From a bacterium (GTDB lineage: Archaea; Thermoplasmatota; E2; JACPAO01; JAHFTW01), in the NCBI GenBank assembly GCA_040390065.1, contig JAZJZE010000009.1:1-64000 (forward strand): a DNA stretch of 64,000 nucleotides. The letters run 5' to 3'. Of this stretch, positions 226 to 19,170 are shown one piece after another. The position numbers and the translations under genes are program-made. A model generated the notes under the pieces. That model saw nothing but the letters and a program-made list of their open reading frames with translations, was not told the origin of the DNA and made no database searches. Within the stretch, counting starts at the first letter, position 1. Each line of letters begins with the position of its first letter.

Positions 226-241
226 ATTCGACGACGAGACC

Positions 242-1234: not shown

Positions 1235-1360
1235 CGCAACTATGTGGCCAATAAACGCCTTTTCACGATTGATTTGCGCTGTGCGAATCCTGGCTAAGCC
1301 ACCTTGGCCCAGCAACACAGGTGATGGACGGGAACCCGACCATCACGGCGTTGTTTGTAA

Positions 1361-2203: not shown

Positions 2204-2265
2204 GTGGGGACATTCCGCGAATGGCCCACTTGAACACCGCGGATTCAGCTCAAGGGAATGTAAGA

Positions 2266-2293
2266 TTCATATAGTATTAGAAGTTTATATGAA
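2266..2293. other. 28-bp imperfect palindrome containing direct-repeat copy 2; candidate recombinase site
   Basis: TTCATATA-GTATTAGAAGTT-TATATGAA, about 60 bp upstream of the recombinase start. Confidence 0.55.
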
Positions 2294-2337
2294 GACCCAT
2301 GCATTATCGTATATTGCAAGCCAACATCTGACAATCG

Positions 2338-2976: not shown

Positions 2977-3590
2977 TTGCGTCGCCTCGCTGCGGCCACG
3001 GCCACCAGGATGGCACCCGCGCCGAGCGCAACACCTGCCGCATCCCCGCCTTGCGTCGGTGTCGTCACCGGAGGCGGGAGCCCGGGCGGGGGCGGCGCCA
3101 GACCCGGCGTTCCGGGGGGCATGGGCGATGTGACGGGGGGCGGGAGCCCTGGCGGGGGCGGCGGCAGACCCGGCGTCAGCGTCGGGGGAGGCGTCCCGGG
3201 CGGCGTGGCGGGCGGGGGCGGCGCGGCCGGGGCCGTCCAGTTGTAGACGATGTCCGGCGCGCGGCCATCGACCTGGACCGCGTAGTACACTGTCTCGTTT
3301 GGAGCCAAGGCGGGAAGTGCGGCGGAGTGCGAGCCGTTACCGGACGAGGAGGGCCCGTACGACGGCAGCGTGCCGGCCGCTTCACCCCCCCAGACAATGC
3401 GGCTCGTCGTGTTGGCATCGCCGCCGTCGATGGTCCACGACAGCGTCCGGTGCCAGGCGCCGTCCGCGAAATGGTACGGCGAGGGTGAAACGTCCGTGAC
3501 GTGCGCGGCGGCCGCGGAAACTGGTACCGGGTTGAGGGTGCCGACCGCGAAGGCGACTAGCAGGACGCCTCCCAGCCGCACCATGGGCAT
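2973..3590 (-). CDS. Secreted protein with FN3-like domain, Pro-rich repeat linker and C-terminal TM + basic tail
   Basis: Signal-like N-terminus; duplicated PGL(A/P)PPPPGLPPPVT; ends GVALGAGAILVAVAAARRRK; overlaps the lipB start. Confidence 0.75.
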   Translation of the reverse strand: MPMVRLGGVLLVAFAVGTLNPVPVSAAAAHVTDVSPSPYHFADGAWHRTLSWTIDGGDANTTSRIVWGGEAAGTLPSYGPSSSGNGSHSAALPALAPNETVYYAVQVDGRAPDIVYNWTAPAAPPPPATPPGTPPPTLTPGLPPPPPGLPPPVTSPMPPGTPGLAPPPPGLPPPVTTPTQGGDAAGVALGAGAILVAVAAARRRK

Positions 3591-3705
3591 GCCAGCACGA
3601 GGGCAAGCATAGACCTGCCGCCAACCGCTCGACGCGGCGGTCCCCTTGCGCACAGGCCAGCGCCTGTCCGACGGGGTCCAGATAGGGTCACTCCATGGCG
3701 GACAC

Positions 3706-4035
3706 ATGCGCCTTTCCACGCTCGCGATTGGATGCCTAGCCCTGGCCGCATGGCTGGCCGTCGTGCCGAACGCAACCGCCCATACCCATGACTGCTCGAA
3801 CCAGGTTGACACCCACTGCAGCATGTGGGACTGCGGGAACCCGAATTGGAAGCAGTGCGATGCCTACTGCACGGAGCATCAGAACGACCACCCCCCACCT
3901 TGCAACTGGTGGAACTGCGACGTCTTCCTGCAACCTGGCAACGGATACCTTTGCCTGTGGCCCATTACCGGGCAGCACGACCTGCTGTGCGAAGGCCCGC
4001 AGCCGCAAGTGGAGGCGCTCTGCCAGCCGTTCTAG
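3706..4035 (+). CDS. Small secreted Cys/Trp-rich protein
   Basis: Signal peptide ending ATA-H, then about 85 aa with 10 Cys. Confidence 0.7.
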   Translation: MRLSTLAIGCLALAAWLAVVPNATAHTHDCSNQVDTHCSMWDCGNPNWKQCDAYCTEHQNDHPPPCNWWNCDVFLQPGNGYLCLWPITGQHDLLCEGPQPQVEALCQPF

Positions 4036-4070
4036 TCCGCATCATGGGGCTTCGCCGACCCCGCCGCCGT

Positions 4071-5078
4071 TTACCAGTCAGTCGTCGCCGGCCGGAGCAG
4101 CCGCACCAGGAGCGCCATCTGCACCCACATGCGGTTCTCGGCTTCGTCGTAGATGACGGAGCGCGGCCCGTGGGCGAGGTCGTACGTCGCCTCTTGGCCC
4201 CAGTGGCCTGGAAGGCAGTGCAGGAAGATGGCGCCGGGGGCGGCGAGCGTCGCCAGCATCTCTTCTGTCAGGGTGTACCCGGCGAACGCCTTCGTGCGCT
4301 GCAGCTCCTCTGCCTCGTCGCCCATGGATACCCACGTGTCGGTCGCCACGGCGTCGGCGCCCTTCACGGCGAGTTCTGGCTTGCGGTGGAAGGAGATGCG
4401 AGTCCCGGCAGCCTCGGCGAGGGCCTTCGCGCGTTCCACGATCTCGGGGTCCGCGTCGTAGCCCTTCGGTGTTGCGACTTGGATGTGCATGCCTACCATG
4501 GGCGCGGCCAGCAGGTAGCTGTGCAGCATGTTGTTGCCGTCGCCGACATAGGCGAACGTCTTGCCTGCGAGGTCGCCGAGGTGTTCACGCAGCGTCAACC
4601 AGTCCGCCAGGATCTGGCACGGGTGCTCGACGTCGGTGAGGGCGTTGACGACGGGGACGGTGGCGTAGCGTGCCAGCGCCTCGAGGCTGGCATGGCTCTT
4701 GGCGCGGTACACGAGCGCGTGGCCGTACCGCGACAGCACCTGCGCCGTGTCTTCGATGGATTCGCCGCGCGACAGTTGGCTGGTCTGCGCGTCGAGGTTG
4801 ATGGCGATGCCGCCAAGCCGCTGCACGCCGACTTCGAAGCTGACGCGGGTGCGCGTCGAGTTCTTCTCGTACACCATGAGGACGGCTTTGCCCGCAAGCA
4901 GGGGCGGCAGGGGTCCGCGTGCGGCTTGCGCCTTGAGGTCCGCGGCTTCACGCAGGACTTCGTCAAGGTACGGCGCGACGTCCATCATGCCAAGGACGGC
5001 GCGGGCCCCGGGCACGGGGGTGGGCGCGGGGGCCGAGGGCGGTTCGGTGTGGATGGTTTCGATGCGGGTCTTGCTCAT
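4071..5078 (-). CDS. argF: Ornithine carbamoyltransferase
   Basis: STRTR, HPCQILAD, GDGNN, SMG, HCLP; ATG overlaps the argH stop. Confidence 0.95.
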   Translation of the reverse strand: MSKTRIETIHTEPPSAPAPTPVPGARAVLGMMDVAPYLDEVLREAADLKAQAARGPLPPLLAGKAVLMVYEKNSTRTRVSFEVGVQRLGGIAINLDAQTSQLSRGESIEDTAQVLSRYGHALVYRAKSHASLEALARYATVPVVNALTDVEHPCQILADWLTLREHLGDLAGKTFAYVGDGNNMLHSYLLAAPMVGMHIQVATPKGYDADPEIVERAKALAEAAGTRISFHRKPELAVKGADAVATDTWVSMGDEAEELQRTKAFAGYTLTEEMLATLAAPGAIFLHCLPGHWGQEATYDLAHGPRSVIYDEAENRMWVQMALLVRLLRPATTDW

Positions 5079-6541
5079 CGTGGGGTCTCCAAGAGTTGCG
5101 GGATTGGACGGGTGAGGAGGTCGAGCGGGCGTTCGGCTGCCTTCTGGGCGGCGGCCACCATGGACGCCAAGTCCACGGCCCGTGAGGAGAGGCCGCGCAG
5201 CGTGGCCGCGACGGCTGACGGGGCGGGCCCTCCGACCGTTGCCCGACGCGACGGGTCGGGCTGCAGGACGGCGAGGACGGCCTCCGTGGCCGCGCGGTCG
5301 AGTCCGACGGCCTGGACGGCGTCCTGGAGAGAAGATCCCGCTTCGACCTTTGCGTAGGCGCGCGCGGACGCGTCGTAGGCTGTGCGGAATGGCATGCCGG
5401 TGCGCACGAGAGCCTCCGCCACATCGGTCGCCAGGATGCCGGGCTTGGCCCACTCGGCCGCAGCGGCGCGCGCGTCGTACGTCATGCCTTCGACCAGTGG
5501 TGCAAGCAGGTCAGCCGTGGTGACGGCGTCGGCGAGGGCGTCCACGAGGTACGGTTTGGTGAGTTGGAAGTCGCGTTGGTAGCCGAGGCCGAGGCCCCCG
5601 ACGATGGCGGAGACGGCCGCGAGCGGGCCTGCGAGCCCCTTGCCGCGTCCGCGTGCCAACTCGAGGGCGTCGGGGTTGCGCTTCTGCGGCATGAGGCTGG
5701 AGCCCGTCGTGTAGCCCGGCGGCAGTTTGAGCGCGCCCGATGCAAACAGGTCCAACAAGTCTTGGGCGAGGCCCGCGAGGACGATGCCCGCGTGGGCGCA
5801 GGCCTCGCACGTGCGCAGGACTGAGTCCCGCGTGCCGGTGGCGAGGATTGCGCTGCGCGGAGGTCGCAGGCCGAGCAACCGCGCCGTGAACGCCGGGTCG
5901 ATCGGCAGGGTGGAGCCGGCGACGGCGCCGCAGCCGAGTGGCGATTCGCCGACGTCGTCGAAGGCGGCCAACGCGAGTGCGGCGGCGTCCTGCAGGCGCG
6001 CCGCGTGGGCGGCCAGGAGGAATCCTAGAGTGGCGGGCTGCGCCGGTTGGCCGTGCGTGCGTGCGACCCACGGTGTCGCCGTATGCGTCGCCGCCTGGTG
6101 GGCCAGGGCGTTGGACAAGGCCAGCAAGCCTTGGGCCAACTGGGCCAGGCCGGCCCGCGCGTGCAGGACGATGCAAGTCGCGACCTGGTCGTTGCGGCTG
6201 CGCCCCGTGTGCAGCTTGCGGCCCGTGTCGCCGAGGGCGACGGTGAGGCGCGCCTCGATGTTCATGTGCAGGTCTTCGAGGTCCGCCTTGAGGCTGAATG
6301 TCCCGGCCTCGTGGTCGAGCAGGATTGCCCGCAGGCCGGCAAGCAGTTGTGCTGCCTCCTCGGCCGTGACGAGGCCCGCGCTGCGCAGGCCCACGACGTG
6401 CGCGCTCGATCCGGCGAGGTCATGGATGACGAACGGCCGGTCTTCGTCGACCGTCTGCGAATACGCGAGGAGGTCCGGGTGCAAGCCGGAGCCCGTGCGG
6501 GCCTGCCAGAACGGCTGGCCGGGGTTCTGCGGTGTGCTCAT
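5075..6541 (-). CDS. argH: Argininosuccinate lyase
   Basis: EDLHMNIE, HTGRSRNDQ, THGQPAQP, GSSLMPQKRNPD. Confidence 0.93.
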   Translation of the reverse strand: MSTPQNPGQPFWQARTGSGLHPDLLAYSQTVDEDRPFVIHDLAGSSAHVVGLRSAGLVTAEEAAQLLAGLRAILLDHEAGTFSLKADLEDLHMNIEARLTVALGDTGRKLHTGRSRNDQVATCIVLHARAGLAQLAQGLLALSNALAHQAATHTATPWVARTHGQPAQPATLGFLLAAHAARLQDAAALALAAFDDVGESPLGCGAVAGSTLPIDPAFTARLLGLRPPRSAILATGTRDSVLRTCEACAHAGIVLAGLAQDLLDLFASGALKLPPGYTTGSSLMPQKRNPDALELARGRGKGLAGPLAAVSAIVGGLGLGYQRDFQLTKPYLVDALADAVTTADLLAPLVEGMTYDARAAAAEWAKPGILATDVAEALVRTGMPFRTAYDASARAYAKVEAGSSLQDAVQAVGLDRAATEAVLAVLQPDPSRRATVGGPAPSAVAATLRGLSSRAVDLASMVAAAQKAAERPLDLLTRPIPQLLETPR

Positions 6542-7851
6542 TTCTTGGCCTTCACCACGACGCGGGCCTTGCTGGTTTTCTTGCCGTTGGCGATGCTGGC
6601 TTCAATCGTCTTCTGGCCCGTCAGGCGGCCGGCGGCTTGGCCGGAGCGCACAGCGTTGGCGGTCTCCGTCGGCAGGCTCCAGATCTCGATGAAACCCTCC
6701 GAGGCATGGTGGTTGAAGGAGTCCTTCGTCCCGTACGTGGCGAGGTTGTCCTTGAACAGGCTGAGTGGGCTGGTGCGACCGAGGACCGACAGTCCGCCCT
6801 TGTAGGCTTGGACCTTCACGGTGCCGCTGACGTTGCGCTGGATGGTGTCGATGGCGGCGCGGATGGCGAGCATCACTGGCGCATACCACTGGCCGTCGTA
6901 GACGTTCTCGGCGAACTTCTGTTCGAGGAAGGGCTTGAGCTTCATCTCCTCCTTCGTGAGCGTCAAGGCTTCGAGGGCCTTCTTGGCGAACAGGACCGTC
7001 ATTGCGGCGGGAGCTTCGTAGACTTCGCGGCTCTTGATGCCGATGAGGCGGTTCTCGACATGGTCGATGCGGCCGATGCCGTGGGCGCCGGCCAGCGTGT
7101 TGAGCTGGGCTACGAGGTCCCAGAGGGGGAGTGCCTTGCCGTTCAGCTTGACGGGGATGCCGGCCTGGAAGGTGAGCTCGATCGTGCCGGGCGTGTTGGG
7201 CGCGTCGCGCGGGTTCGTGGTCCAGGTGAAGGCGTCGTTGTGCGGCGCGTACGCCGGGTCCTCGGTGTCGCCGCCCTCGATGCTGCGGCCCCACAGGTTC
7301 TCGTCCGTCGAGTACGTGCCATGAGGGGAGGATGACTGGCGCTTGAGCTGCGGGATCTCCAGGTCGTACTTCTTGGCGTACTCGACGGTGGCCACGCGCG
7401 TCATCGGGTGCGTGCGCTGGGGGGCAAGGCAGACGAGGCCGGGCATGAGGGCCTTGACGCCGGCCTCGATGCGGACCTGGTCGTTGCCCTTGCCGGTGCA
7501 GCCGTGGGCAACGGCGTCGCCGCCGGCCAGTTGCACGGCTTCGACGAGCTTCTTCGCGATGAGGGGGCGGCCGATTGCGGTCGCCATGGGGTAGACGCCC
7601 TCGTACATCGCGTTGGCGCGGATCGAAGGCGCCAGGAAGTCGTTGCAGAACTCCTGCGCCGCTGGCAGGATGATGCAATCCTCGGCGCCGTTGGCAAGGG
7701 CGCGCGCCTTGGCCTCGGCGAGCTGGGCCTTCCCTTGTCCGAGGTCGAGCATGGCCGCCGTCACCTTGGCGTTGTGGTTCTTCTTCAGCCAGTGGATCAT
7801 GACGCTGGTGTCGAGGCCGCCGGAATAGGCGAGGACGATGTGCTTGGGCAC
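6538..7851 (-). CDS. argG: Argininosuccinate synthase
   Basis: AYSGGLDTS, HGCTGKGNDQVR, DENLWGRSIE, ENRLIGIKSREVYE; GTG start. Confidence 0.96.
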   Translation of the reverse strand: MPKHIVLAYSGGLDTSVMIHWLKKNHNAKVTAAMLDLGQGKAQLAEAKARALANGAEDCIILPAAQEFCNDFLAPSIRANAMYEGVYPMATAIGRPLIAKKLVEAVQLAGGDAVAHGCTGKGNDQVRIEAGVKALMPGLVCLAPQRTHPMTRVATVEYAKKYDLEIPQLKRQSSSPHGTYSTDENLWGRSIEGGDTEDPAYAPHNDAFTWTTNPRDAPNTPGTIELTFQAGIPVKLNGKALPLWDLVAQLNTLAGAHGIGRIDHVENRLIGIKSREVYEAPAAMTVLFAKKALEALTLTKEEMKLKPFLEQKFAENVYDGQWYAPVMLAIRAAIDTIQRNVSGTVKVQAYKGGLSVLGRTSPLSLFKDNLATYGTKDSFNHHASEGFIEIWSLPTETANAVRSGQAAGRLTGQKTIEASIANGKKTSKARVVVKAKK

Positions 7852-7904
7852 GAAGCGAAATCCTCGGAGGACGCACTTAAGGCGCGCGGCGAATTGTCGC
7901 CATC

Positions 7905-7933
7905 ATTGGGCACGCATGTCTAAAATGGGACAT
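7905..7933. promoter_or_regulatory. Putative arginine-regulon operator, copy 1
   Basis: ATTGGGCACGCATGTCTAAAATGGGACAT, 22/29 identical to 13840-13868; palindromic core ATGTC-N8-GACAT. Confidence 0.65.
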
Positions 7934-7947
7934 CGCGTGTGGAAGGC

Positions 7948-8616
7948 ATGGCGAAGAAGGCCAAGTCGCCGGCCGCGGGATCCGTTGCGCAACAGGTGCG
8001 CGCCTACATCGACGGGAGGCCGGTCGTGCGCGACGCCCTGGCCATGGACATCGTCAACCTGTCCGCCTTGACGCGGCGCATCCGCGACGAGACCGGACTG
8101 GGTTCCGAGGAGGCCGTGCTGGTCGCCTGCCGCCGGTACGTGCCGCGCAACGCTTCGCCGGACTACCAGGCCGCCATCCGGAAGGTACTGGACAAGTCGA
8201 AGCTGGAGGTGCGCACACGCATGGCGGTGCTCACGGCGCACCCTTCGTGGAAGCTTTTCGGGCGCCTCGAGAAGGCCATGAACCAGGCGGGCGGACGCAG
8301 CCACCCGATCCATGTCCTGCATGGCAGCGAGTCGATTACCATCATCACCGACGAGACCCTTCTCGGCGAGATGCAGGAGATCCTCGGCACCGAGGACCTC
8401 ATCAAGGTGCGGCGCGGCCTCGTCGAGCTGAACATCCGCAGCCCCGACTCCGTCGAGGACGTCCCCGGCACGCTCGCGTTCCTGGCGTCGAGCCTGTCCA
8501 GCAAGGGCATCAACTTCATCGAGGTCATCAGTTGCTACAAGGACAACATGTTCCTGATCGAGGAGGACGACCTGTTCGCGGCGTTCCAGGCCCTGAACGG
8601 GCTCATCAAGACCTGA
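7948..8616 (+). CDS. Archaeal ACT-domain protein with N-terminal putative helix-turn-helix; candidate arginine regulator
   Basis: N-terminal IVNLSALTRRI...EAVLVACRRY and C-terminal ACT (PGTLAFLASSLSSKGINFIEVIS); divergent from argG. Confidence 0.8.
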   Translation: MAKKAKSPAAGSVAQQVRAYIDGRPVVRDALAMDIVNLSALTRRIRDETGLGSEEAVLVACRRYVPRNASPDYQAAIRKVLDKSKLEVRTRMAVLTAHPSWKLFGRLEKAMNQAGGRSHPIHVLHGSESITIITDETLLGEMQEILGTEDLIKVRRGLVELNIRSPDSVEDVPGTLAFLASSLSSKGINFIEVISCYKDNMFLIEEDDLFAAFQALNGLIKT

Positions 8617-9367
8617 CGCCCACGCGTCCATGGGAGGTCGGCCTGGCCTTGCGCCGGACGGCAGGCTGCCGCGTCTTGCGAGGTGGCGTTGGTCCCGGTC
8701 TCGCCTCCAGACGCTCGTCAAGAGGGACGCTCGGCGGGTTGGGGCCATGCTGTCGCAGCAAGCGCGTGGCCAGGAGGATGAACCAGGCAGCGATCAGGCC
8801 GACCAGGAGGCGCTGCGCGAGGGCGGCCGCGGCCCATCGAGCCGCCGTGCAGGACACGTAGGCCAACGCCGAACATGACACGCCGATGCCCATGACGAGG
8901 GAAGGACGGGCAAACGGCCGCCAAGCCGCGCAACTGCGAAAGGCGGGCACGAGGACGACCATCGCGGCGCCTGACAAGGCGAACGTGGGCGGGCCGACGC
9001 GTTCGTGGATGGTTCCCGGCAACGACGGCCGCCCGGCGTCTCGGTCGACGGGGCAGGCGGCCATGACGACGGCACCGATGCCGGCAAGCCAGAGCATGGC
9101 GAGACCGGCGCGCTGCCACCCGGAACGGGCCAACTGCGGACGCAAGGCGAAGGTGAGGAGCGCGCCGCCGACTGCGAAGCCCAGGAGCGCGATGGCCCAG
9201 AGGAGCCAGAAGCGCGTGTTGGCGAATTCGCTCATGTGCCAGGGCTCGTGCGCGAGGGAGGTGGCATGGAGTGCGACGACGGCCAGGACGAAGGCGGCCA
9301 CTCCGGCCAGACCCGCGACGGCCAAGCCGCGAAACGGCGCATGGTTGGCGTCTTGGCTCTGCGGCAT
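8606..9367 (-). CDS. DUF998-like multi-pass membrane protein
   Basis: About 6 TM helices; MSE, PVD...GTIH and QR motifs resemble DUF998. Confidence 0.65.
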   Translation of the reverse strand: MPQSQDANHAPFRGLAVAGLAGVAAFVLAVVALHATSLAHEPWHMSEFANTRFWLLWAIALLGFAVGGALLTFALRPQLARSGWQRAGLAMLWLAGIGAVVMAACPVDRDAGRPSLPGTIHERVGPPTFALSGAAMVVLVPAFRSCAAWRPFARPSLVMGIGVSCSALAYVSCTAARWAAAALAQRLLVGLIAAWFILLATRLLRQHGPNPPSVPLDERLEARPGPTPPRKTRQPAVRRKARPTSHGRVGVRS

Positions 9368-9471
9368 GCAGGCGTTCTTCGGACGGCCGGGTATTAAGCG
9401 GTCCCGTCGCCGTCAAACATGCCGCCCGCGGAAACGGCTGCGCCAAGGCGTCCGGCTGGGGAAAGCCGCGC

Positions 9472-10653
9472 CTATGCCGGCGCGAGGACCGCTGCGGTCA
9501 CGGCGCCGGCCAACGGTTCTGTGGCACCAAGGAGCTCGGCCTCCGTCACAACCAGGGGTGGTGCAAGGCGGACGACGGACTTTCCCGCTTGGCCAACGAG
9601 GTAGCCCGCCTTTCGCATCGCGGCAACGACGTCTGGCGCCGTCGGCGTGGCAAGGGGCAGGCCGAGAAGCAGGCCGCGGCCACGCGCCGTCACCCCGAGT
9701 TCCTGCATGCGGGCGAGGAACAGGCCTCCGAGCCGACCAGCCCGCGTGACCAGTTGTTCCTTGGCAAGCACGTCCAGGACGGCGTTGCCGGCGGCACATG
9801 CGATTGGGTTGCCGCCGAAGGTGCAGCCGTGCGAACCGGGGCCAAGCAGTTTCGCTGCGCTAGGCTTCGCAAGCATGGCGCCGAGCGGCAGGCCTCCTCC
9901 GATGCCCTTCGCCATCGTGATCACGTCGGGGTCGAGCCTGTCGTGCTCGAAGCCGAAGAACTTGCCCGTGCGGCCGACGCCCGTCTGCACTTCGTCGGCG
10001 ACCAGAAGGGCGCCGTTCTGCGACGTCAGGCGGGCCATCGTGTTTGCCAGGTCGGGCGACATGGGCGTGACGCCGCCTTCGCCTTGCACCGACTCGAAGA
10101 AGACGCCGGCCACGCGATGCTTGGCGAAGGCCGCGTCGAGGGCCGCGGGGTCGTTGAAGGGGACGTGGACGATCTGGCCCGGCAGCGGAGCGAAGCCTTC
10201 GTGGTAGTGCGGTTGGCCGGTCAAGGCCAAGGAGCCCGTCGTGCGGCCATGGAAGGAGTTGGCAAAGGCCACGACGACTGCGTCGGGCATGCCTTGGGCG
10301 TGGGCGTGGCGACGCAACAACTTGAGCGCCGCTTCGTTGGCCTCGGTTCCTGAATTGACAAACAGCGCCTGATGGCCGCCACTGAGAGCCTGCAGCCGTT
10401 CCGCCAGCAGGAGGCTTGGGGCGTTGGCGTAGAGGTTGGACGTGTGGCCCAAAGTCGCCACCTGCCGCGTGACCGCCTCGACGATCGCGGGATGAGCGTG
10501 GCCGAGGGCGTTGACCGCGACGCCCGCCATGAGGTCGGTGTAGGAGCGGCCTTCGGAATCGTCGACGCGGGCCCCACGGCCGCGCACGAGTTGCAGCGAT
10601 GGCGTCGCGTAGTTGGGAAGCATGGCGGCCTCCCATCGCGTGGTGAGGGTCAT
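9472..10653 (-). CDS. argD: Acetylornithine aminotransferase
   Basis: NSGTEANEAALK, FHGRT, DEVQTGVGRTG, AKGIGGG; ATGA overlap with argB. Confidence 0.93.
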   Translation of the reverse strand: MTLTTRWEAAMLPNYATPSLQLVRGRGARVDDSEGRSYTDLMAGVAVNALGHAHPAIVEAVTRQVATLGHTSNLYANAPSLLLAERLQALSGGHQALFVNSGTEANEAALKLLRRHAHAQGMPDAVVVAFANSFHGRTTGSLALTGQPHYHEGFAPLPGQIVHVPFNDPAALDAAFAKHRVAGVFFESVQGEGGVTPMSPDLANTMARLTSQNGALLVADEVQTGVGRTGKFFGFEHDRLDPDVITMAKGIGGGLPLGAMLAKPSAAKLLGPGSHGCTFGGNPIACAAGNAVLDVLAKEQLVTRAGRLGGLFLARMQELGVTARGRGLLLGLPLATPTAPDVVAAMRKAGYLVGQAGKSVVRLAPPLVVTEAELLGATEPLAGAVTAAVLAPA

Positions 10654-11429
10654 GGCCCCGCCAACCCGGCTTCGACGAGCGTGCCGTCGGCGCGGCCATG
10701 CACGACGGCGTTCTGGAGTGTTCCAGCAGAGAGCCGCGTGATGAGGACGCGCGCGACGCCGGCTTCGATGGCGGCGACGGCGCCGTGCAACTTGGGGATC
10801 ATGCCGCCCGTGGCCGCGTTGCCGACCAAGGCGCGGGCTTGCGGTGGCGTGAGGCGCGATAGGGTCATGCCGTCGCTGCCGCGCACGGCCGAAACATCGG
10901 TCGCAAGGACGAGCCACTCGCAGCGGATGGAGGCGGCGACTGCGCAGGCTCCCTCGTCCGCGTTGACGTTGAGCGCTCCCGCGGCGTCGAAGCCGACGGG
11001 CGTCACGACGGGGACGTGTGTCGGGGTGGCAAGCACCGCGACCGCGCCGGCAAAGCGCGTCACGGCCCCCACGCGGCCGAGGTCGCCGCCGGGGACTTTC
11101 TTGACTTGCGCCTCGAAGGTGCGCTGGGCGGCCGGCATGTGGAAGGTCGCCAAACCATGCGTGGCGAGTTGCTTCGACAGTTCGGCGCCGATCTGGTCCA
11201 TGACGCGCAAGACGACGGCAGCCGCCGCTGGGCTCGTGACCCGCAGGCCGTCGATCTTGTGGACGGTTTCCCCGAGCGATGCCAGGGCCTGGTCGATCTG
11301 GGGCCCGCCGCCGTGCACGATGACGACGTTGTGGCCTGCAGCGCGTAGGGCGCGGCATTCCGCGGCAACGAGGCGGACCTGCTCTGGGTCGAGGACGACG
11401 TTGCCGCCGAGTTTCAGGACGATTCGCAT
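10650..11429 (-). CDS. argB: Acetylglutamate kinase (short form)
   Basis: KLGG, VHGGGPQI, GLRVT, NVNAD, GGMIPK. Confidence 0.92.
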   Translation of the reverse strand: MRIVLKLGGNVVLDPEQVRLVAAECRALRAAGHNVVIVHGGGPQIDQALASLGETVHKIDGLRVTSPAAAAVVLRVMDQIGAELSKQLATHGLATFHMPAAQRTFEAQVKKVPGGDLGRVGAVTRFAGAVAVLATPTHVPVVTPVGFDAAGALNVNADEGACAVAASIRCEWLVLATDVSAVRGSDGMTLSRLTPPQARALVGNAATGGMIPKLHGAVAAIEAGVARVLITRLSAGTLQNAVVHGRADGTLVEAGLAGP

Positions 11430-11437
11430 GGCAACCC

Positions 11438-12787
11438 TCACGTCGTGTACGCCGAGTTGAAGGTGACGTATTCCTCGGACAGGTCGCAGCCCCACGCCTC
11501 TGCGTTGTGGTCGCCAAGCCCCAGGCGGACCCGGATGCGCACTTCCTTCGCCTTGAGGACGTCGGAGGCCTGGCTCAGGAGATTGCCGGCCAGCGGCTCG
11601 CCGCGTTCGAGGACTGGGACGGAGCCGTGCTCGGACTCGAACCAGACGCTGACCTTGGACGGGTCGACGAGCGCGCCGCACGCGCCGACCGCGGCGACGA
11701 TGCGCCCCCAGTTGGGGTCCTTGCCGTGCAGCGCCGACTTCACGAGGTTGCTGGACGCGACGGCCCGCGCGATGGTGCGGGCGTCACTCAAGGTGCTTGC
11801 GCCCTCGACGCTGACCTCCATGAGGCTGGTTGCGCCCTCGCCGTCGCCGGCGATGTGCTTGGCGAGTGTCTTGCAGGCAAGCTGCAGGCCCGCCTGGAAT
11901 GCCTCGGCATCGACGGTGCCCTTGCGCAGGTTGGGCCCACCGGCCGCGCCGTTGGCTATGATGGCGCACGTGTCGTTGGTGGATTGGTCGCCGTCAATCG
12001 TGATCATGTTGAACGTCGCGTTCACGGCCTCCTTGAGGTTCGCCTGGAGGTACGTCGAGTTGAGTGGCGCGTCGGTCACGAGGAAACCGAGCATCGTGGC
12101 CATGTTCGGATGGATCATTCCCGCACCCTTGGCGATGCCCGCAATGTGAAAGGTGCGCGTCTTGCCACCAGCGGCCGGCACCTTGACCTCGATGAAGACG
12201 TGCTTCGGGTGCGAATCCGTCGTCGTGATGGCTTCCGCCGCTTCGCCGCCCGTGGCGTCGCGCAGGGTTGCAGCGCACTCGTCGATGCCGGAGATGACCT
12301 TCTCGATGGGAAGGGGGCGGCCGATGATGCCGGTGCTGCAGACGATGAGCTGGTCCGCCGTGAGGCCGAGCTTGGCTGCGGCGTGGGCGGCCATCGCCCG
12401 CGCGTCGGCGAGGCCCTGCTCGCCTGTGCATGCGTTGGCGTTGCCGGCGTTGCACACGATGGCGCGGATGTCGCCGTTCTCCACGTGCTCACGGCTTACG
12501 ATGACGGGCGCAGCGCAGAACGCGTTCTGGGTGAAGACCGCGGCACCCTTGGAGGGGCGGTCGCTCACGATGAGGCAGACGTCGCGGCGCTTCTTCTTGA
12601 TCTGCGCCCAGACGCCCTGGGCAAGGAAGCCGGGCACGTGGTTGAGGTGCTTGTCGGGCTGCACCGTGAGGGTGTAGGCGGGGCTTGCCGTGGTCGTGGT
12701 CTGCGTCATGTCAGTCAGGCTCGGTTCTGCGGGGGGATGGATGGGGTCGATGCGCGCCAGGCTGCGGCGCCAGCCGAGGAGGACCAT
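11438..12787 (-). CDS. argJ: Glutamate N-acetyltransferase / ornithine acetyltransferase
   Basis: NAGNANACTG, STGIIG, KGAGMIHPNMATML autoproteolysis site, DGDQSTND, WGCDLS. Start is 12787 (TAATG overlap with argC) or 12709. Confidence 0.94.
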   Translation of the reverse strand: MVLLGWRRSLARIDPIHPPAEPSLTDMTQTTTTASPAYTLTVQPDKHLNHVPGFLAQGVWAQIKKKRRDVCLIVSDRPSKGAAVFTQNAFCAAPVIVSREHVENGDIRAIVCNAGNANACTGEQGLADARAMAAHAAAKLGLTADQLIVCSTGIIGRPLPIEKVISGIDECAATLRDATGGEAAEAITTTDSHPKHVFIEVKVPAAGGKTRTFHIAGIAKGAGMIHPNMATMLGFLVTDAPLNSTYLQANLKEAVNATFNMITIDGDQSTNDTCAIIANGAAGGPNLRKGTVDAEAFQAGLQLACKTLAKHIAGDGEGATSLMEVSVEGASTLSDARTIARAVASSNLVKSALHGKDPNWGRIVAAVGACGALVDPSKVSVWFESEHGSVPVLERGEPLAGNLLSQASDVLKAKEVRIRVRLGLGDHNAEAWGCDLSEEYVTFNSAYTT

Positions 12788-13776
12788 TACGGACCCCCTC
12801 CGATGCGTGTCAGGCCGGTCGTCTCGTCGAGGCCCAGGGCGAGGTTCATGTTCTGCACGGCCGCGCCGCTGCCGCCCTTCACGAGGTTGTCGATGGCGCA
12901 GCGAGCCACGATGAGGCCGGCGTCGGTGTCGACGTCGACTGCGACGTCGGCGAAATTGCTGCCCCGCACGTGCGACGTGTCGGGTTCGGCCACGATGCGC
13001 ACGAAAGGCGTGTGGGCGTATGTGCTGGCGTACGCGGCCTTCACGGCGGCGGACGTCGCGCCCGAGACCAAGGGAAGGTAGACGGTGGCAAGAAGGCCGC
13101 GGTTCTGGGGCACGAGGTGCGGCGTGAAGCGGACCGGGCGCACCGGCGCAATCATGCCGTTGGATTCGATGCGGTTCGTCGCAAGGCGGATTTCGCCGAG
13201 GTGGTCGTGGCCAAGCACCTTGTAGGCCCGCACGGCCTCGTTGGTCTCGGCGTAGTGCAAGTCGGCGCGGGCCGTGGCTCCGGCTCCGGAGACGCCGGAC
13301 TTGCCGTCGGAGATGAGCGGGCCTGCTGCGACGAGGTGCGACTTGAGCGCCGGCCCGGCGGCAACCATCGTCGCCGTGGGATAGCATCCGGGATTTGCGA
13401 TGCGGCGCGTCCCCTTGGGCACCGGCATGAACTCCGACAAGCCGTAGGTCCAACCGGAGCCTGCCTCGAACGCGGCGGCCCGATGGGCACGGGAAAGGTC
13501 CACGATGAGCGGGACGTCCGCAAGCTCCGTCGCGTGCTTGAGGGCCTCCTCGGAATCCGTCGCGAGGAAGACGACGTCGGCGTCGTGGGCGGCTTGCGCA
13601 TGCGTCATGACCAGGTTGGTCAGGTGCCGGAAGGCTGGGACCGAGTCGCCGTAGGGCTTCCCCGCGTCGCCGCTTGTGACGGGGTGCAGCGCGCCGACAG
13701 CGGGGTGGGCGACCAGGAGGCGCATCAATTCACGGCCCAGGTAGCCCCGGGCGCCGATCACGGCGACGTCAACCAT
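12787..13776 (-). CDS. argC: N-acetyl-gamma-glutamyl-phosphate reductase
   Basis: GARGYLG, IANPGCYPT, SGVSGAG, IDNLVKGGSGAAVQNMN. Confidence 0.95.
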   Translation of the reverse strand: MVDVAVIGARGYLGRELMRLLVAHPAVGALHPVTSGDAGKPYGDSVPAFRHLTNLVMTHAQAAHDADVVFLATDSEEALKHATELADVPLIVDLSRAHRAAAFEAGSGWTYGLSEFMPVPKGTRRIANPGCYPTATMVAAGPALKSHLVAAGPLISDGKSGVSGAGATARADLHYAETNEAVRAYKVLGHDHLGEIRLATNRIESNGMIAPVRPVRFTPHLVPQNRGLLATVYLPLVSGATSAAVKAAYASTYAHTPFVRIVAEPDTSHVRGSNFADVAVDVDTDAGLIVARCAIDNLVKGGSGAAVQNMNLALGLDETTGLTRIGGGP

Positions 13777-13839
13777 TGCGAAGGACGACCCTAAACTCGG
13801 TGGCGATGATGATAACCATGATGGCGAGCAGGGAACAAG

Positions 13840-13868
13840 ATTGGGCACGTGTGTCCGAATTCGGACAC
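13840..13868. promoter_or_regulatory. Putative arginine-regulon operator, copy 2
   Basis: Perfect 18-bp palindrome GTGTCCGAATTCGGACAC (13851-13868) preceded by ATTGGGCACG, upstream of argC. Confidence 0.7.
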
Positions 13869-13870
13869 GC

Positions 13871-16024
13871 TCAGGTGCGGCGCTTCCTTGCGCCCTTCAT
13901 GGCCAAGGCGGCAAGCGGTGCGCAGCCGGCAAGGGTGCCGCCCGCCCACGCGGCCAGCGCCGGCCATGGATTTGGATGGGCGACGCCCTCGAGGACGGCC
14001 GAAGGCGGCGGGCGGGCGCGGCCGGCTTGCTTGGTGACGTCCGAACAAGCGTCGCCCAAACCGTTGCCGTCGACATCTTCCTGCGCCGGGTTCGGCACGG
14101 TCGGGCAGTTGTCCACGCCACCGAGCGCGGAATCGTTGGCAATCCCGTCGCCGTCGAGGTCTGCATCGCAGAGGTCGCCCATGCCGTCCCCGTCCATGTC
14201 GCGTTGCATGCGGTCGGCCACACGCGGGCAATCGTCGACGGCATCGGGAATGGCGTCCAGGTCCGCGTCCGGAGGCGGCACCGCGGCCGTTGGTTCTGCT
14301 GCGGGCTCCCCCGGCACATCGGGAGCCGTGGTGTCGCAGGCGTCGCCGATGCCGTCGCGGTCGGCGTCCCCTTGGTCGCGGTTCACGGCGGCGGGGCAAT
14401 TGTCTGCGCCGTCGGCCACCCCATCCATGTCGGAATCGCGGTCGCCAGGGTCATCCCGGACGACGACGTTGCAGGAGGATTGGCCGTCGCTGGCAGCGGA
14501 GCCGACGGTCACCGCATAGTCGCCCGCCTCGGCGTATTGCACGACAATGCCAGACGATCCCGGCTGCACGACTGCGGCACCCGGCGCGTCCCAGACGGGC
14601 TGGGCGGCCCCGGTCTGAACGATGGAGACGTACGCGCCGACGGCCGTGATCTGCGAGGCGGGCCGGCAGACGACGACCTCCGGGGCCGGCGGCCGCACGC
14701 TGACCGCGCAGGTTGCCGTCGTGGGCGGGTCGCCCTGGTCGCGGACCGTGATGGTGTAGTTGCCGACCTCCGAAAAGGCGCGGGTCATGACAGCCATCGC
14801 AGCCTGACCGTCGTCATCGCCTTCGAACGGGTCCCAGGCGTAGGGCGGCGTGCCGCCGGTCGCTTGCCACGTGGCCGAAGATCCTGGAGCAAGCGTCCGG
14901 AACGACGGGGAGCATGCAAGGGGCTCCGGCTCGGGCGGCGGTGGAGGCGATGGCGGCGGAGACGGAGGAGGTGGGGGCGGCGGGAGCGAGGGGTGGCAGC
15001 GAGGCGGACCGATGGCGACGATGTCATTGCGGAAGGCGGCGCCGTACGTCGCGGATGCCTGTCCGCCAAAGAGGTAGGCGCACCCGGCACCCATGTCGTA
15101 GACCGAGGGCGCCCCGTACTCCCCGTAGGGCAACGGCGTGGGCCACGACTGGACGGTCATGGCGGCCGGATCGAAGGCACCGATCCACGCCGACGGCTCG
15201 TTGGGGTGGTTCCACCCGCCGCGGCCGCCCATGATGATGGCGCGCGATCCGTCCCACACAGCCGTCAGTTCCGCCACGTCATCCGGCAAGCTGGCCGGGA
15301 GGATGGTGACGGAGCCAGGGCTCACGCCGGATGGCGGCACGAAGCGCAGGATACGTTGCGACGCGATCGGCCCCGTTCCATCCCAGCCGCCGATCGCGTA
15401 CGCCGCGGAGCCATCCCAGACGGCTGCCCCGGCGTATACGGCCACGGGCATGCGAAGCGCCAAGGTCGCCACGGTCTGCGCGGCCGGATCGAATTCGTAG
15501 ATGTTGTAGTTCCACGTGCCCCAAGCGCCGTCGACGTTCTCCCAGCCGCCGAAGACGTAGGCCTTGGAACCGGTCCACACGGCCATCGAGTCGGTGAGGC
15601 CGTACGGCAGGTGCGGCTTCATCGTTGTAAACGAACCGCCGCCGGCGGGGTCGAAGGCGAGGATGGTGTCCCAGACGTTGTTGTCGCCGCTGTCGCCCCA
15701 ACCACCGAAGAGGTAGGCAACCGAGCCGGCCCACACCGCCGGAAACCTTGTGCGCCACGTGGGAAGGTGCGCCGGCATGACCGTCGTGGTGCCAGCCACG
15801 GGATCGAAGTCCACGACTTCACTGGCACTGGCCAACGAGGCCTCGCCGCCGAAGATGTACGCGTGCGTCCCGGACCAGACAGCGGCTTGTCCGGCCTGCG
15901 GACTCGGCAGATGAACCGCGAGACTTTGCGCCGAGGCCCCCGGGGGAATCGCAGCCTCGGCGCCGCCGAACCCACCAAGGGCCAGCAAGGCGAGAAGCCC
16001 AGCCACCACGACGTTGGACCGCAT
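13871..16024 (-). CDS. Surface protein: Kelch beta-propeller, poly-Pro linker, thrombospondin type-3 Ca-binding repeats, C-terminal anchor
   Basis: Six Kelch-type repeats (AVWxGxxAYxFGG...FDP); DxDxDGxGDACD and DNCP repeats; signal peptide. Confidence 0.85.
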   Translation of the reverse strand: MRSNVVVAGLLALLALGGFGGAEAAIPPGASAQSLAVHLPSPQAGQAAVWSGTHAYIFGGEASLASASEVVDFDPVAGTTTVMPAHLPTWRTRFPAVWAGSVAYLFGGWGDSGDNNVWDTILAFDPAGGGSFTTMKPHLPYGLTDSMAVWTGSKAYVFGGWENVDGAWGTWNYNIYEFDPAAQTVATLALRMPVAVYAGAAVWDGSAAYAIGGWDGTGPIASQRILRFVPPSGVSPGSVTILPASLPDDVAELTAVWDGSRAIIMGGRGGWNHPNEPSAWIGAFDPAAMTVQSWPTPLPYGEYGAPSVYDMGAGCAYLFGGQASATYGAAFRNDIVAIGPPRCHPSLPPPPPPPSPPPSPPPPPEPEPLACSPSFRTLAPGSSATWQATGGTPPYAWDPFEGDDDGQAAMAVMTRAFSEVGNYTITVRDQGDPPTTATCAVSVRPPAPEVVVCRPASQITAVGAYVSIVQTGAAQPVWDAPGAAVVQPGSSGIVVQYAEAGDYAVTVGSAASDGQSSCNVVVRDDPGDRDSDMDGVADGADNCPAAVNRDQGDADRDGIGDACDTTAPDVPGEPAAEPTAAVPPPDADLDAIPDAVDDCPRVADRMQRDMDGDGMGDLCDADLDGDGIANDSALGGVDNCPTVPNPAQEDVDGNGLGDACSDVTKQAGRARPPPSAVLEGVAHPNPWPALAAWAGGTLAGCAPLAALAMKGARKRRT

Positions 16025-16091
16025 GCGAGCAGAAGCCCCCACAGCGGCATAAACGGTTGCGCTCAGGTTCGGCGCCGACCGTCCCAACTCG

Positions 16092-16934
16092 TCAGCCGGC
16101 CTTGAGCGAGTCCAGGTGCGCCTGCCCGTCGGCATGGCCCTGCGCGATGGTTTTCCGGATGGCCCCGAGGTCGCGCGACAGGCGGTGCAGGCCGGTGCTT
16201 CGCGTCGGCCGCACGACGCGGACCGTGGCGCCGGGGGGCGGATCGGCAGCGTACGCCATGGCCGCCTCCTTGATCTCGGCATGACGCAGGAGGCCGTTGC
16301 GCAGCGTGGGGAAACGACGGGCAATCATGGCTGCAAGGACACGGTTGTCCTTCCGGATGACGCCATCTTGCCAGTTGACGACGACCGTGACGTCGGTGGC
16401 CCCGTCCTCCACGGCCTTGCGCACCGGGATGGGGTCGTTGATGCCGCCGTCCAGGTAGTCAAGGCCGTCGATGCGCACGGGGCGGCCGGCCGCCAGGGGC
16501 AGGCGACCCGTCGCCTTGAGCCAGGGAATGACGGGCCCGTTGCGCAAGTCGTGGTACGTCGTGCCCCCGTCCTTCAGGCGGCAAGCGGTCACGTACACGG
16601 GGTACGGGCAACGATGGATTGCAGCTTGGTCGATGGGATGTTCCAATTCGTAGACGATCTCCAGCAACGCGTCGTGGTCCAGAAGCGGCCCCCGGCGGCG
16701 CAGGAAGCGGCGGTAACTGAGGATGCGGCGGTCGGCGGCGTAGGTCCACGTGTGCTCCGCATGCTTGGCCTGGCCTGCGGCGAACCAAGCCGCCAGTGCT
16801 CCGCCCGCCGAGGTGCCGTACACGGCATCCCACTTGGTATGTCCGGCCTCCTCGAATGCCGAAAGGACGCCGTTGGCGTACGCCGCCTTCATGCCGCCGC
16901 CTTCGATGACGAGGACGCGTTTGGCCGGAGGCAC
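16092..16934 (-). CDS. Patatin-like phospholipase
   Basis: EGGGMK, GTSAG, DGG motifs; start approximate. Confidence 0.88.
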   Translation of the reverse strand: MPPAKRVLVIEGGGMKAAYANGVLSAFEEAGHTKWDAVYGTSAGGALAAWFAAGQAKHAEHTWTYAADRRILSYRRFLRRRGPLLDHDALLEIVYELEHPIDQAAIHRCPYPVYVTACRLKDGGTTYHDLRNGPVIPWLKATGRLPLAAGRPVRIDGLDYLDGGINDPIPVRKAVEDGATDVTVVVNWQDGVIRKDNRVLAAMIARRFPTLRNGLLRHAEIKEAAMAYAADPPPGATVRVVRPTRSTGLHRLSRDLGAIRKTIAQGHADGQAHLDSLKAG

Positions 16935-16981
16935 GCACCAAACGAGCGGATTCCCGGTGAAAAGGTGCACGCTGGTGGCGG

Positions 16982-17707
16982 CTAGGTGCTGAGCTCGATG
17001 CGACTTGGCCACATGATGCCACGGCCGCGTGTAGGCAAGACGGCGCCCGTGAAGGACATGGCAAGGCTGAACGCGTCGGCACCAAGGGGAGCGTCAAGCC
17101 GCATGGGGATGCGCACGGCGACAAGGGAATCCTTGGTGAGGCAGTCGGTCTGGCCGCCCCCGGAGTAGGCGTATACAGTGGATCCCTCGGCGATGGTGGC
17201 GCCTTTCTGCAGCACCTTGGCAAACAGGGTCGCCGTGCCCATGCCGTCATGATCGATGTAGAACGTGACGTTGGCCCACGCGCCCTTTGGGAATCCCGTG
17301 GTGGCCTCGACGGAGACCCATGTCCCGAGGTCGGCGGGACCGGTCAAGGCCTGCACGCCCAGGGTGCCGCATGTGCTGGTGCTGCCCAGGTCCTGGTCAA
17401 GCTCCTCGTCCGAGGTTTGGATGTCTTGGCGCAGGTACCACGTCTCGTTGTGCGTGGGCGCGGGGGGTGGGGCATTTGGGCCCGGGCCCGACGGGGACGT
17501 GGTGGAGGACGTCGTCGTCGGAGGCGGTGCCTCGGAGGTCGCGGTCGAGGTCGTGCCGAAGGACGTCGGCGCTGCGGCGGGGCTCCCCGAATCCGTCGTC
17601 GTGGATGTACCTGTCTCCGCCGACTGCGAACAGCCAGGCAAGAGGAGAACGCCGACCATTGCAAGGGCCAGCGGGAGGTCACGCGTGCGCACGTCGGTGC
17701 GACGCAT
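16982..17707 (-). CDS. Putative lipoprotein with Ser/Thr/Pro linker
   Basis: LLLPGC lipobox-like signal followed by a low-complexity linker. Confidence 0.7.
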   Translation of the reverse strand: MRRTDVRTRDLPLALAMVGVLLLPGCSQSAETGTSTTTDSGSPAAAPTSFGTTSTATSEAPPPTTTSSTTSPSGPGPNAPPPAPTHNETWYLRQDIQTSDEELDQDLGSTSTCGTLGVQALTGPADLGTWVSVEATTGFPKGAWANVTFYIDHDGMGTATLFAKVLQKGATIAEGSTVYAYSGGGQTDCLTKDSLVAVRIPMRLDAPLGADAFSLAMSFTGAVLPTRGRGIMWPSRIELST

Positions 17708-17733
17708 TGGCCGGGTCTTAGCCCCTTCCGTTG

Positions 17734-19170
17734 CTAGCGGTTCACGGCGTGGATCGCCTTGCCGTGCAGCGCCTCGGCGGCCTCCATGATGCCTTCCGAC
17801 ATCGTGGGGTGGGGGTGGACCATCAGGGCCAGATCCTCGACCGTTGCGCCCATCTCGAGGGCCAGGACGGCCTCCGAGATGAGGTCACTTGCATTGGCGC
17901 CAAGGATGTGGATGCCAAGCACGCGGTCCGTCTTGGCGTCGGCGACAATCTTGTAGAATCCGTCGGGTTCGGAGGCGGCCAGAGCACGGCCCAGTCCGGC
18001 GACGTTGAAGGTCCCCGTTCGCACGTCGTGGCCGGCGGCCTTTGCCTGCACTTCGGTGAGTCCGGCCGTTGCGACTTCCGGGTCGGTAAAGATGACGCCC
18101 GGAATGGTCACCCAGTCCGCGGCGGCGCCCTTCTTGCCCGCGATGGCCTCTGCCGCCACGATGCCCTCCTTGGACGCCTTGTGGGCGAGCATTGGGCCGG
18201 GCGTGATGTCGCCGATTGCGTACACGGACGGGACGGAGGTGCGCATCTGTTTGTCCGTCGGCACAAAGCCGCGTTCGTCGACCGTGACGCCGGCCTTGTC
18301 GAAGCCGAGGTTCTTCGTGTTGGGGCGGCGGCCGACGGAGACGAGGACGTAGTCGCAATCGATGACCTGTTCCTTGCCGGCGGCATCGAATGTGAGCTTG
18401 ACGGACGAGCCCGAGACCTTGGCTTCCTTGGCCCGCGCAGAGAGGTGAAGCGAGAAGCCCTTGCGTTTGAGGATGCGCTCGAGGCCCTTCGCGATGTCGA
18501 CGTCGACGCCGGGGATGAGCTGGTCCATCATCTCGATGACCGTGACCTTGCTGCCGAGGTTGGCGTAGGCGCAGCCGAGTTCGAGGCCGATGACGCCGCC
18601 GCCGATCACGACGATGTGCTTCGGGACCTCGCGCAATTCGAGGGCACCCGTGCTCGACAGGATGCGCTTCTCGTCGAACTTGAAGCCCGGAATCTCGATC
18701 GTGCTCGAACCCGTCCCGACGATGATGCTCTTGGCCTGCAACGAGCGCCGGGATGGTCCCGCGACATCGATCGAGTTGGCTCCAGTGAGTGTGGCACGGC
18801 CTTGAAGCACTTCGACTTTGTTGGCCTTGAGGAGCCCCGCAACGCCGGATGTGAGCTTGTCGACGACGGATTGCTTCCAGGCGACCAGTTTGCCCATGTC
18901 GACGGCCGCGGCGCCAAACGAGATGCCCTTGTCGCCGGCGTGGGTGGCGTGCTTGAAGTCCTTGGCGGCGGAGATGACGGCTTTGGACGGGATGCAGCCG
19001 ACGTTGAGGCAGACGCCGCCGAGCTTGCCCTCGTCGATGATGATGGTCCGGAGCCCGAGTTGGCCGCAGCGGATGGCTGCAACGTATCCGCCGGGACCGG
19101 CGCCGATGACCGCCACGTCGTAGGAATCGCCCGGCTTGGCTGCGACCGCCTGGCCTTGCGCCTGGACCAT
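17734..19170 (-). CDS. lpdA: Dihydrolipoamide dehydrogenase (E3)
   Basis: GAGPGG, GGVCLNVGCIPSK, GGGVIG, HPHPTMSE. Confidence 0.96.
   Translation of the reverse strand: MVQAQGQAVAAKPGDSYDVAVIGAGPGGYVAAIRCGQLGLRTIIIDEGKLGGVCLNVGCIPSKAVISAAKDFKHATHAGDKGISFGAAAVDMGKLVAWKQSVVDKLTSGVAGLLKANKVEVLQGRATLTGANSIDVAGPSRRSLQAKSIIVGTGSSTIEIPGFKFDEKRILSSTGALELREVPKHIVVIGGGVIGLELGCAYANLGSKVTVIEMMDQLIPGVDVDIAKGLERILKRKGFSLHLSARAKEAKVSGSSVKLTFDAAGKEQVIDCDYVLVSVGRRPNTKNLGFDKAGVTVDERGFVPTDKQMRTSVPSVYAIGDITPGPMLAHKASKEGIVAAEAIAGKKGAAADWVTIPGVIFTDPEVATAGLTEVQAKAAGHDVRTGTFNVAGLGRALAASEPDGFYKIVADAKTDRVLGIHILGANASDLISEAVLALEMGATVEDLALMVHPHPTMSEGIMEAAEALHGKAIHAVNR

Follow-up and report, generated by a model that had tools for sequence, protein, structure and literature searches.

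LysM of Sulfolobus, a member of the Lrp/AsnC family that regulates the lysW lysine/arginine cluster, is an archaeal one-component regulator of basic amino acid biosynthesis; its ligand domain is small and ferredoxin-like (beta-alpha-beta-beta-alpha-beta), and it contacts DNA upstream of the promoter under modulation by an amino acid. Bacterial ArgR/AhrC recognizes palindromes that precede several arg operons, regulates its own gene, and the bacterial regulators NikR and TyrR/PhhR combine a DNA-binding domain with an ACT-type ligand domain, the ACT part of which mediates oligomerisation. To our knowledge, a regulator dedicated to arginine biosynthesis has yet to be described in the Thermoplasmatota. 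Here, we analyse a stretch of 64,000 nucleotides (nt) from a metagenome-assembled archaeal genome of this phylum (assembly GCA_040390065.1, 2.68 Mb, 66.8% G+C; contig JAZJZE010000009.1, C9 in our numbering, hereafter the window), in which two arg operons share a palindromic box that also precedes the gene of a small ACT-domain protein, P0001. We consider it likely that P0001 is an autoregulated, amino-acid-sensing regulator of arginine synthesis belonging to an uncharacterised family, and that it probably fills the vacant place of an arginine regulator in this archaeal group.

If it acts as proposed below, P0001 would resemble each of these systems in the features just named. It differs from LysM by a four-helix N-terminal domain (N-domain) without a wing, a tandem ACT module in place of one RAM domain, another operator and another phylum. 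In comparison to ArgR/AhrC, the fold of the sensor differs, the site (TGTCC-N6-GGACA) is unlike the consensus of the AT-rich 18-bp ARG box, and it is located far upstream of the TATA element. NikR has a ribbon-helix-helix domain, whereas the N-domain model of P0001 contains no strand; TyrR consists of PAS, AAA+ and C-terminal helix-turn-helix (HTH) parts, and neither protein is matched by P0001 in Pfam. The same search (E<=0.01) returned no Lrp/AsnC family and no Arg_repressor family for P0001. Given that no such domain is found, P0001 is a member of neither the ArgR nor the Lrp family. Its N-domain is without a solved relative.

The genes and palindromes on which the comparison rests are as follows, in window coordinates:

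4071–5078, minus strand: ornithine/aspartate carbamoyltransferase gene (OTCace_N and OTCace domains), presumably argF as judged from the operon context
5075–6541, minus strand: argH, argininosuccinate lyase (Lyase_1 and ASL_C2 domains)
6538–7851, minus strand: argG, argininosuccinate synthase (Pfam E 3.6e-80 and 2.4e-57), first gene of operon 1, GTG start at 7851
7917–7932: core palindrome of box 1, TGTCTAAAATGGGACA (TGTCY-N6-RGACA), centre 7924.5, ~24 nt before the ATG of the ACT gene
7948–8616, plus strand: gene of P0001, a DUF7523/ACT_7 protein of 222 amino acids and the candidate regulator, divergent from argG, ATG at 7948
9472–10623, minus strand: argD, class-III aminotransferase (Pfam)
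10650–11429, minus strand: argB, amino acid kinase family (Pfam)
11438–12709, minus strand: argJ (Pfam)
12787–13776, minus strand: argC (Pfam), ATG start at 13776
13851–13868: perfect 18-bp palindrome of box 2, GTGTCCGAATTCGGACAC, core 13852–13867, centre 13859.5

The two operons are thus argGHF (operon 1) and argCJBD (operon 2, 9472–13776), both transcribed from the minus strand. A scan of window positions 1–20000 against Rfam gave nothing at gathering scores.

An earlier note, made from the sequence of the window, had pointed to two 29-bp boxes at 7905–7933 and 13840–13868 (plus-strand coordinates), which agree at 22 of 29 positions, share one orientation and lie 54 and 64 nt away from the start codons of argG and argC, respectively. 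These values were reproduced, as were the perfect palindrome GTGTCCGAATTCGGACAC in the argC box, the 15 nt between the end of box 1 and the ATG of the ACT gene, and the presence of CTTAAG at 7876–7881. The note had also singled out TGTC-N8-GACA as the core. While this palindrome is indeed present, it is not enriched when taken by itself: the window holds two copies, where 0.93 would be expected, and the genome holds 13, compared to 14 copies of the reversed control; we therefore dropped it as a motif and used the full box, a scoring matrix and the pattern TGTCYNAWWTNRGACA instead. The 29-bp similarity resolves into a 16-bp palindrome, TGTCC-N6-GGACA, and a third half-site, GTGCCCA.

On both strands of the genome, the best non-self match of each 29-mer is the other box (7 mismatches); besides this pair, no site lies within 8 mismatches of either sequence and two lie at 9. 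A matrix trained on 39 sites of relatives, with the genome of the window excluded, scores box 1 at 28.6 bits and box 2 at 24.9 bits, and the next sites in the genome reach 16.1 and 15.1 bits (C49:1163 and C5:206579), with no arg gene recognized among the nearby reading frames. The expectation of enrichment at arg and car genes was borne out at the argG and argC promoters and failed for carA, which we rejected as a member of the regulon, since no position in the 600 bp surrounding its start scores above -8.9 with the matrix.

Comparison with relatives supports a functional element. Orthologues of P0001 occur in 33 of 41 related genomes, and argG is present in 21 of the 30 loci that were fetched, in 20 of them as the immediate divergent neighbour. 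When conservation is defined as at least 8 of the 10 core positions of TGTCC-N6-GGACA, the box upstream of the ACT gene is kept in 19/30 loci (a further site, in locus L020, was missed by the extract), and its consensus in the genus, read by eye, is GGGCAcGCATGTCTAAAAtnGGACAt. Three of the loci with a box (L027, L029 and L032) have no adjacent argG. TGAC variants of the site are seen in L032 and L054. Of 25 orthologous argC loci, 22 retain the core, 65–77 nt from the start in 20 of the 22 and 47 and 90 nt in the remaining two, and it is found in none of five loci of an argC paralog (32–38% identical, tblastn). The half-sites stay constant among relatives, while the spacer and flanks vary. The earlier note's view of the box as a cis-element common to both arg operons and the ACT gene is thus supported by sites that hold the same positions in relatives and are nearly absent elsewhere, and the box goes with the ACT gene also at loci where argG is not adjacent. 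Transcription factors that regulate their own gene usually show this pattern, and a shared, conserved site that is rare elsewhere is what would be expected if P0001 were such a factor with a local regulon. Regarding argC paralogs, the genome of the window itself holds a second argC-like gene (40% identical; G000:C8:31344–32384) and, ~6 kb apart on this other contig, a second carbamoyltransferase-family gene (C8:38663–39082); the pair may belong to a LysW-type or pyrimidine cluster, and the paralogue loci of relatives are without a box.

Genome-wide scans with TGTCYNAWWTNRGACA, allowing one mismatch at most and using the reversed pattern as control, gave a concordant picture. Across 13 genomes of the genus there were 20 matches against 1 for the control, each of the 20 immediately in front of either argC or the ACT gene. 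In other genera of the family, 9/16 matches fall at ACT-gene or argC promoters, and in other families of the order 6/17 fall at the ACT gene, argC, argG or a carbamoyltransferase gene, with control matches for the two levels totalling 4. The carbamoyltransferase site among these six is located in L076, between argH and the carbamoyltransferase gene. Outgroups at the level of the class, most of which are without the ACT gene, showed no enrichment (24 pattern against 38 control matches).

Several individual loci from these searches deserve mention. Genome G029 accounts for seven of the order-level matches, two of them at arg genes. In its locus L071 (G029:C177), identical 16-mers, TGTCCAAATTTGGTCA, at 844–859 and 2305–2320 (1.46 kb apart) flank a HAD-hydrolase gene and adjoin an S15 peptidase gene, which may reflect an expanded regulon or a repeat element. 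At L077 (G026:C16, 1527–1542), a box is located ~110 nt upstream of an open reading frame for a fusion of a PLP-dependent (PALP) domain and a GNAT acetyltransferase domain, a possible further member of the regulon. Distant paralogues of the ACT protein (37–41% identical; L026, L033, L034 and L084, the last at G022:C497) have other genes in front of them, and their upstream regions yielded no box; the paralogue in L084 follows a D-2-hydroxyacid dehydrogenase gene, and L026 and L033 have different upstream coding sequence. These paralogues may regulate other amino acid pathways or be members of them.

The association also reaches beyond the order. Of the 151 Thermoplasmatota genomes sampled, 54 contain DUF7523, as does Haloferax volcanii, included as a control; a second profile search for homologues of the ACT protein returned near relatives only and added no lineages. 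The Methanomethylophilaceae, host-associated methanogens with cultured relatives, belong to a different order and encode an 88–96%-conserved orthologue that is 32–34% identical to P0001. In these genomes, argG and argC diverge, and the ACT gene is found further downstream, on the same strand as argC and right after an argD-like gene, the latter called by eye from the C-terminus of the preceding gene. The ACT gene has its own promoter, where a box of the form TGTYY-N6-RRACA abuts a TATA-like element (ATAAATAC or ATATATAC). This box is found at all 80 loci with at least 8 of 10 core positions and at 62/80 with at least 9, compared to 11 of 400 background windows at the stricter threshold, and it lies 45–52 nt before the matched start in 76 of the 80. 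In front of argC, the box is positioned ~5 nt upstream of a T/A-rich TATA element in 4/4 complete genomes. An element that keeps to the ACT gene as well as to the arg promoters in two orders, although the protein has diverged to about one third identity, is very unlikely to represent anything but the operator of the regulator itself; binding of the box by another factor is formally possible. At one of these loci (L087, genome G094), a long inverted repeat, TTGTCCCTAAACAGG...CCTGTTTCAGGGACAA, is located ~130–80 nt upstream of the ACT gene, between the argD-like gene and the box. It is terminator-like, yet its arms hold the letters of TGTCCC and GGGACA half-sites.

Promoter architecture provides clues to how the box might act. 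The elements at the promoters of the window are:

7876–7881, minus strand: CTTAAG, TATA-like element of argG, centre 27.5 nt before the GTG at 7851, aligned with CTTATC, CTATAA and CTATAT
7888–7901: GGCGA-N4-TCGCC, a further inverted repeat, located between the argG TATA element and box 1
7907–7913, minus strand: third half-site of box 1, GTGCCCA, 3 nt past the palindrome in the direction of argG
7921–7926, plus strand: TAAAAT in the spacer of box 1, likely TATA element of a leaderless ACT gene, centre 24.5 nt before the ATG at 7948, spacing conserved in the genus
13811–13816, minus strand: GTTATC, TATA-like element of argC, aligned with CTATAA and CTATAT of relatives
13842–13848, minus strand: third half-site of box 2, GTGCCCA, placed by the promoter alignment

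An almost gap-free alignment of 26 promoters of the genus (13 of argG and 13 of argC) reads, in this order, palindrome, 3 nt, GTGCCCA, ~13 nt, TCGYC and a TATA-like CTTAAG, CTTATC or CTATAA, and the TGCCC of the third element is invariant in all 26. In more distant relatives (L017, L018 and L050) this element reads TGTCC, which argues that it is a third half-site, placed two helical turns from the first. The distance from the centre of the palindrome to that of the TATA element is 46 bp at both arg promoters (7924.5 to 7878.5 and 13859.5 to 13813.5). Together with the usual geometry of archaeal promoters, the basis of our start-site placement, this spacing would put the site near position -72, render argG probably leaderless and leave argC with a leader of ~11 nt. 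Such a location, ~46 bp upstream of the TATA element, suggests a site of the upstream-activator type rather than a classical operator. The AT-rich spacer of box 1, in turn, likely doubles as the TATA element of the divergent, leaderless ACT gene, and a protein bound there should therefore exclude the TATA-binding protein (TBP) from this promoter.

Two further features of these promoters are recorded here. The repeat GGCGA-N4-TCGCC is shared by most of the 13 argG promoters of the genus, in some with one or two bases changed (read by eye), and may constitute a site for another factor or for further subunits; argC promoters carry GTTCCC...TCGYC in its place. In addition, the first codons of argG (GTG CCC AAG, 7845–7851) repeat the heptamer GTGCCCA, with CTTGGGCACG at 7843–7852, which may be coincidence or an extra contact at the start of transcription.

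The protein itself is composed of two parts. Residues 155–217 match ACT_7 (PF13840) with 33.3 bits (E 4.3e-8), above the gathering cut-off of 27 bits, and residues 12–74 match DUF7523 (PF24367) just under the same value, with 24.1 bits in the full protein and 26.4 bits for the N-terminal 82 amino acids. Orthologous N-domains match DUF7523 in 29/29 cases at E<=1 (best E 5.4e-10), and most close homologues carry the precomputed PF24367 label; database names range from "hypothetical", "ACT domain-containing" and "DUF7523 family" to, wrongly, "aspartokinase". An AlphaFold2 model of P0001 (predicted local distance difference test, pLDDT, 85.8) shows four helices (13–62), a linker helix (71–82) and two beta-alpha-beta-beta-alpha units, the first made of strand 85–97, helix 101–114, strands 122–125 and 130–135 and helix 136–146, and the second of strand 151–164, helix 175–185, strands 190–196 and 199–205 and helix 206–220. 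Foldseek matched residues ~85–220 best to the regulatory domains of aspartate kinases (3aaw, 3mah, 3c1n, 2dtj and 4go5; E 1.8e-8 to 3e-7, with template modelling (TM) scores for the first four, at E ~2e-8, of ~0.5 by query and ~0.7 by target), and this region is thus predicted to form a tandem ACT module of the aspartokinase type. Unlike those enzymes, P0001 has neither a kinase domain nor a partner; what precedes its ACT module is a small helical domain of basic character. The second unit keeps an invariant loop, P173-G174, at the place where amino acids are usually bound by ACT domains.

The N-domain of 35 homologues is basic (median isoelectric point 9.2), as opposed to the acidic ACT part (5.0). 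Its invariant residues are V17, N37, S39, A40, L41, R43 and R63, with R18 and R62 nearly so, and the arginines of helices 1, 3 and 4 are candidate DNA contacts in the model. P0001 is also predicted to form a homodimer, with a score of 0.45 against 0.00 for the best of three controls, runs that agree in at least 80% of contacts and a partner pLDDT of ~75; the mark applied here is reached by 20/30 proteins solved as pairs and by 1/23 solved as single chains. A homodimer would fit a palindromic site. The predicted interface includes residues 26–44.

Based on these observations, we propose that the DUF7523/ACT_7 protein would act as a homodimeric one-component transcription factor, in which the basic four-helix N-domain would bind TGTCC-N6-GGACA, a palindrome accompanied in this family by the extra half-site GTGCCCA, and the tandem ACT module would respond to an amino acid, with arginine as the most plausible ligand. 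The two strong sites of the genome would lie ~72 bp upstream of the transcription starts of argCJBD and argGHF, and the argGHF site would also cover the TATA element of the leaderless gene of the regulator. The DNA-bound form would repress its own gene and help to recruit the basal machinery at both arg promoters, and the ligand would switch DNA binding, resulting in a dedicated arginine-biosynthesis regulon. What the analysis itself provides is the cis-element with its conservation, its specificity and its linkage to the ACT gene, as well as the tandem ACT fold and the predicted dimer. That P0001 is the protein that binds, which ligand it senses and with which sign it acts are points that we infer from the sequences and models; the far-upstream arg sites, combined with a box over the TATA element of the own gene, favour autorepression with upstream activation, and activation of the arg promoters along with repression of the own gene is probably the correct assignment.

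Several results weigh against this proposal. The N-terminal HTH that the earlier note had assumed could not be substantiated: the N-domain modelled alone (pLDDT 85, without any strand) has no Foldseek match in the PDB at E<=0.001; a wide VIA-align search gave a best Z of 5.3 (Slx4 CCD), within the noise for small helical bundles, and Z of 3.6–3.9 for DNA-binding domains; a profile search of PDB sequences found a designed repeat protein only; Pfam returned DUF7523 only; and a protein atlas, used for features, yielded no usable fold. For the full protein, NCBIfam gave sub-threshold matches only, and phmmer against PDB sequences nothing significant. The most conserved segment of the N-domain (33–41) is located in the predicted dimer interface and not on an obvious recognition helix, and may thus serve dimerisation. 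No clear box was seen at 11 of the 30 ACT-gene loci, mostly those at or below 51% identity, one of which (L020) does hold a box. Likewise, 18 of the 33 pattern matches in relatives from the family and order are away from recognized arg genes, beside unrelated or unidentified genes or inside reading frames. The distance between box and TATA element depends on the lineage (46 bp here, ~17 bp in Methanomethylophilaceae), and archaeal activators rarely bind as far from the start as the ~72 bp that separate it from the centre of the box. Finally, a box upstream of the ACT gene would be equally expected if this gene were merely a member of the regulon of another factor.

This last point leads to a different assignment of roles, in which another transcription factor binds the palindrome and the ACT protein, without DNA binding of its own, is co-regulated as part of the arginine regulon, e.g. 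an arginine-sensing partner of a pathway enzyme. The lack of detectable similarity between the N-domain and DNA-binding domains would be accounted for, as would the placement of its most conserved stretch in a protein-protein interface, and tandem ACT modules are best known from enzyme regulatory subunits. However, no other regulator candidate was seen in the interval between the operons, only a DUF998 membrane-protein gene between P0001 and argD. The box also goes with the ACT gene in lineages that have it apart from arg genes and, at 32–34% protein identity, across two orders. In addition, the N-domain is basic with invariant arginines, and the predicted homodimer matches the two-fold symmetry of the site. 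We judge this assignment to be quite unlikely. It is harder still to believe that the boxes have no regulatory meaning at all, with box 2 as the terminator hairpin of the neighbouring surface-protein gene and box 1 as an ordinary TATA region. Box 2 does begin 3 nt after the stop codon of that gene and can form a 7-bp stem, and TGTC-N8-GACA alone is not enriched, but no T-run follows the palindrome, the half-sites are fixed while spacer and flanks vary, the distance to argC is near-fixed, and the same box occurs at three kinds of promoter in two orders. We give this explanation almost no credence. The gene in question is as follows:

13871–16324, minus strand: Kelch/TSP3/PKD surface-protein gene, stop codon at 13871–13873, 3 nt from box 2

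Its product, a large predicted surface protein, contains Kelch repeats, PKD-like domains, thrombospondin type-3 repeats and a proline-rich PPPPS linker, and is unrelated to the regulon.

With P0001 as the binding protein and the box as its operator, the sign of regulation could still be reversed. In a logic akin to that of ArgR, arginine-bound protein would repress all three promoters, spreading over the third half-site and the downstream blocks towards the B recognition element (BRE) and the TATA element. End-product co-repression is common for arginine, and the GTGCCCA and TCGYC blocks, aligned without gaps in the 26 promoters of the genus, could hold further subunits. The argC box of Methanomethylophilaceae, ending so close to the TATA element, may overlap the BRE, and at the gene of the regulator the box overlaps or abuts the TATA element in both orders. 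On the other hand, a palindrome centred 46 bp upstream of both arg TATA elements is too far away to exclude TBP and transcription factor B (TFB) on its own, and the downstream blocks are not repeats of the palindrome. Repression of all three promoters seems unlikely to us, though it deserves to be kept in mind alongside the preferred reading of autorepression with upstream activation. The most far-reaching form of the latter, in which DUF7523 proteins would be an unrecognised family of archaeal transcription factors with the N-domain as a new dimeric DNA-binding module and a tandem ACT module reading arginine, the missing arginine regulator of Thermoplasmatota, including gut Methanomethylophilaceae and possibly haloarchaea, and both an arg activator and a TATA-occluding autorepressor from one type of operator, is a tentative proposal that we hold at slightly less than even confidence.

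Pfam records no function for DUF7523, and a full-text literature search retrieved no paper on the family; broader searches, taken at the level of their result listings, gave nothing on an arginine regulator of this kind. COG2150 is listed as specific to Euryarchaeota (PMC1852104). The present analysis pairs a concrete operator with a concrete candidate regulator, and the conservation of the former is clean. It thereby suggests a candidate function for a domain that is present in about one third of the sampled Thermoplasmatota genomes and reaches into host-associated methanogens. The N-domain may represent a DNA-binding domain without a solved relative, and the argG–ACT intergenic region may be a compact promoter whose single site acts on two divergent genes in opposite ways.

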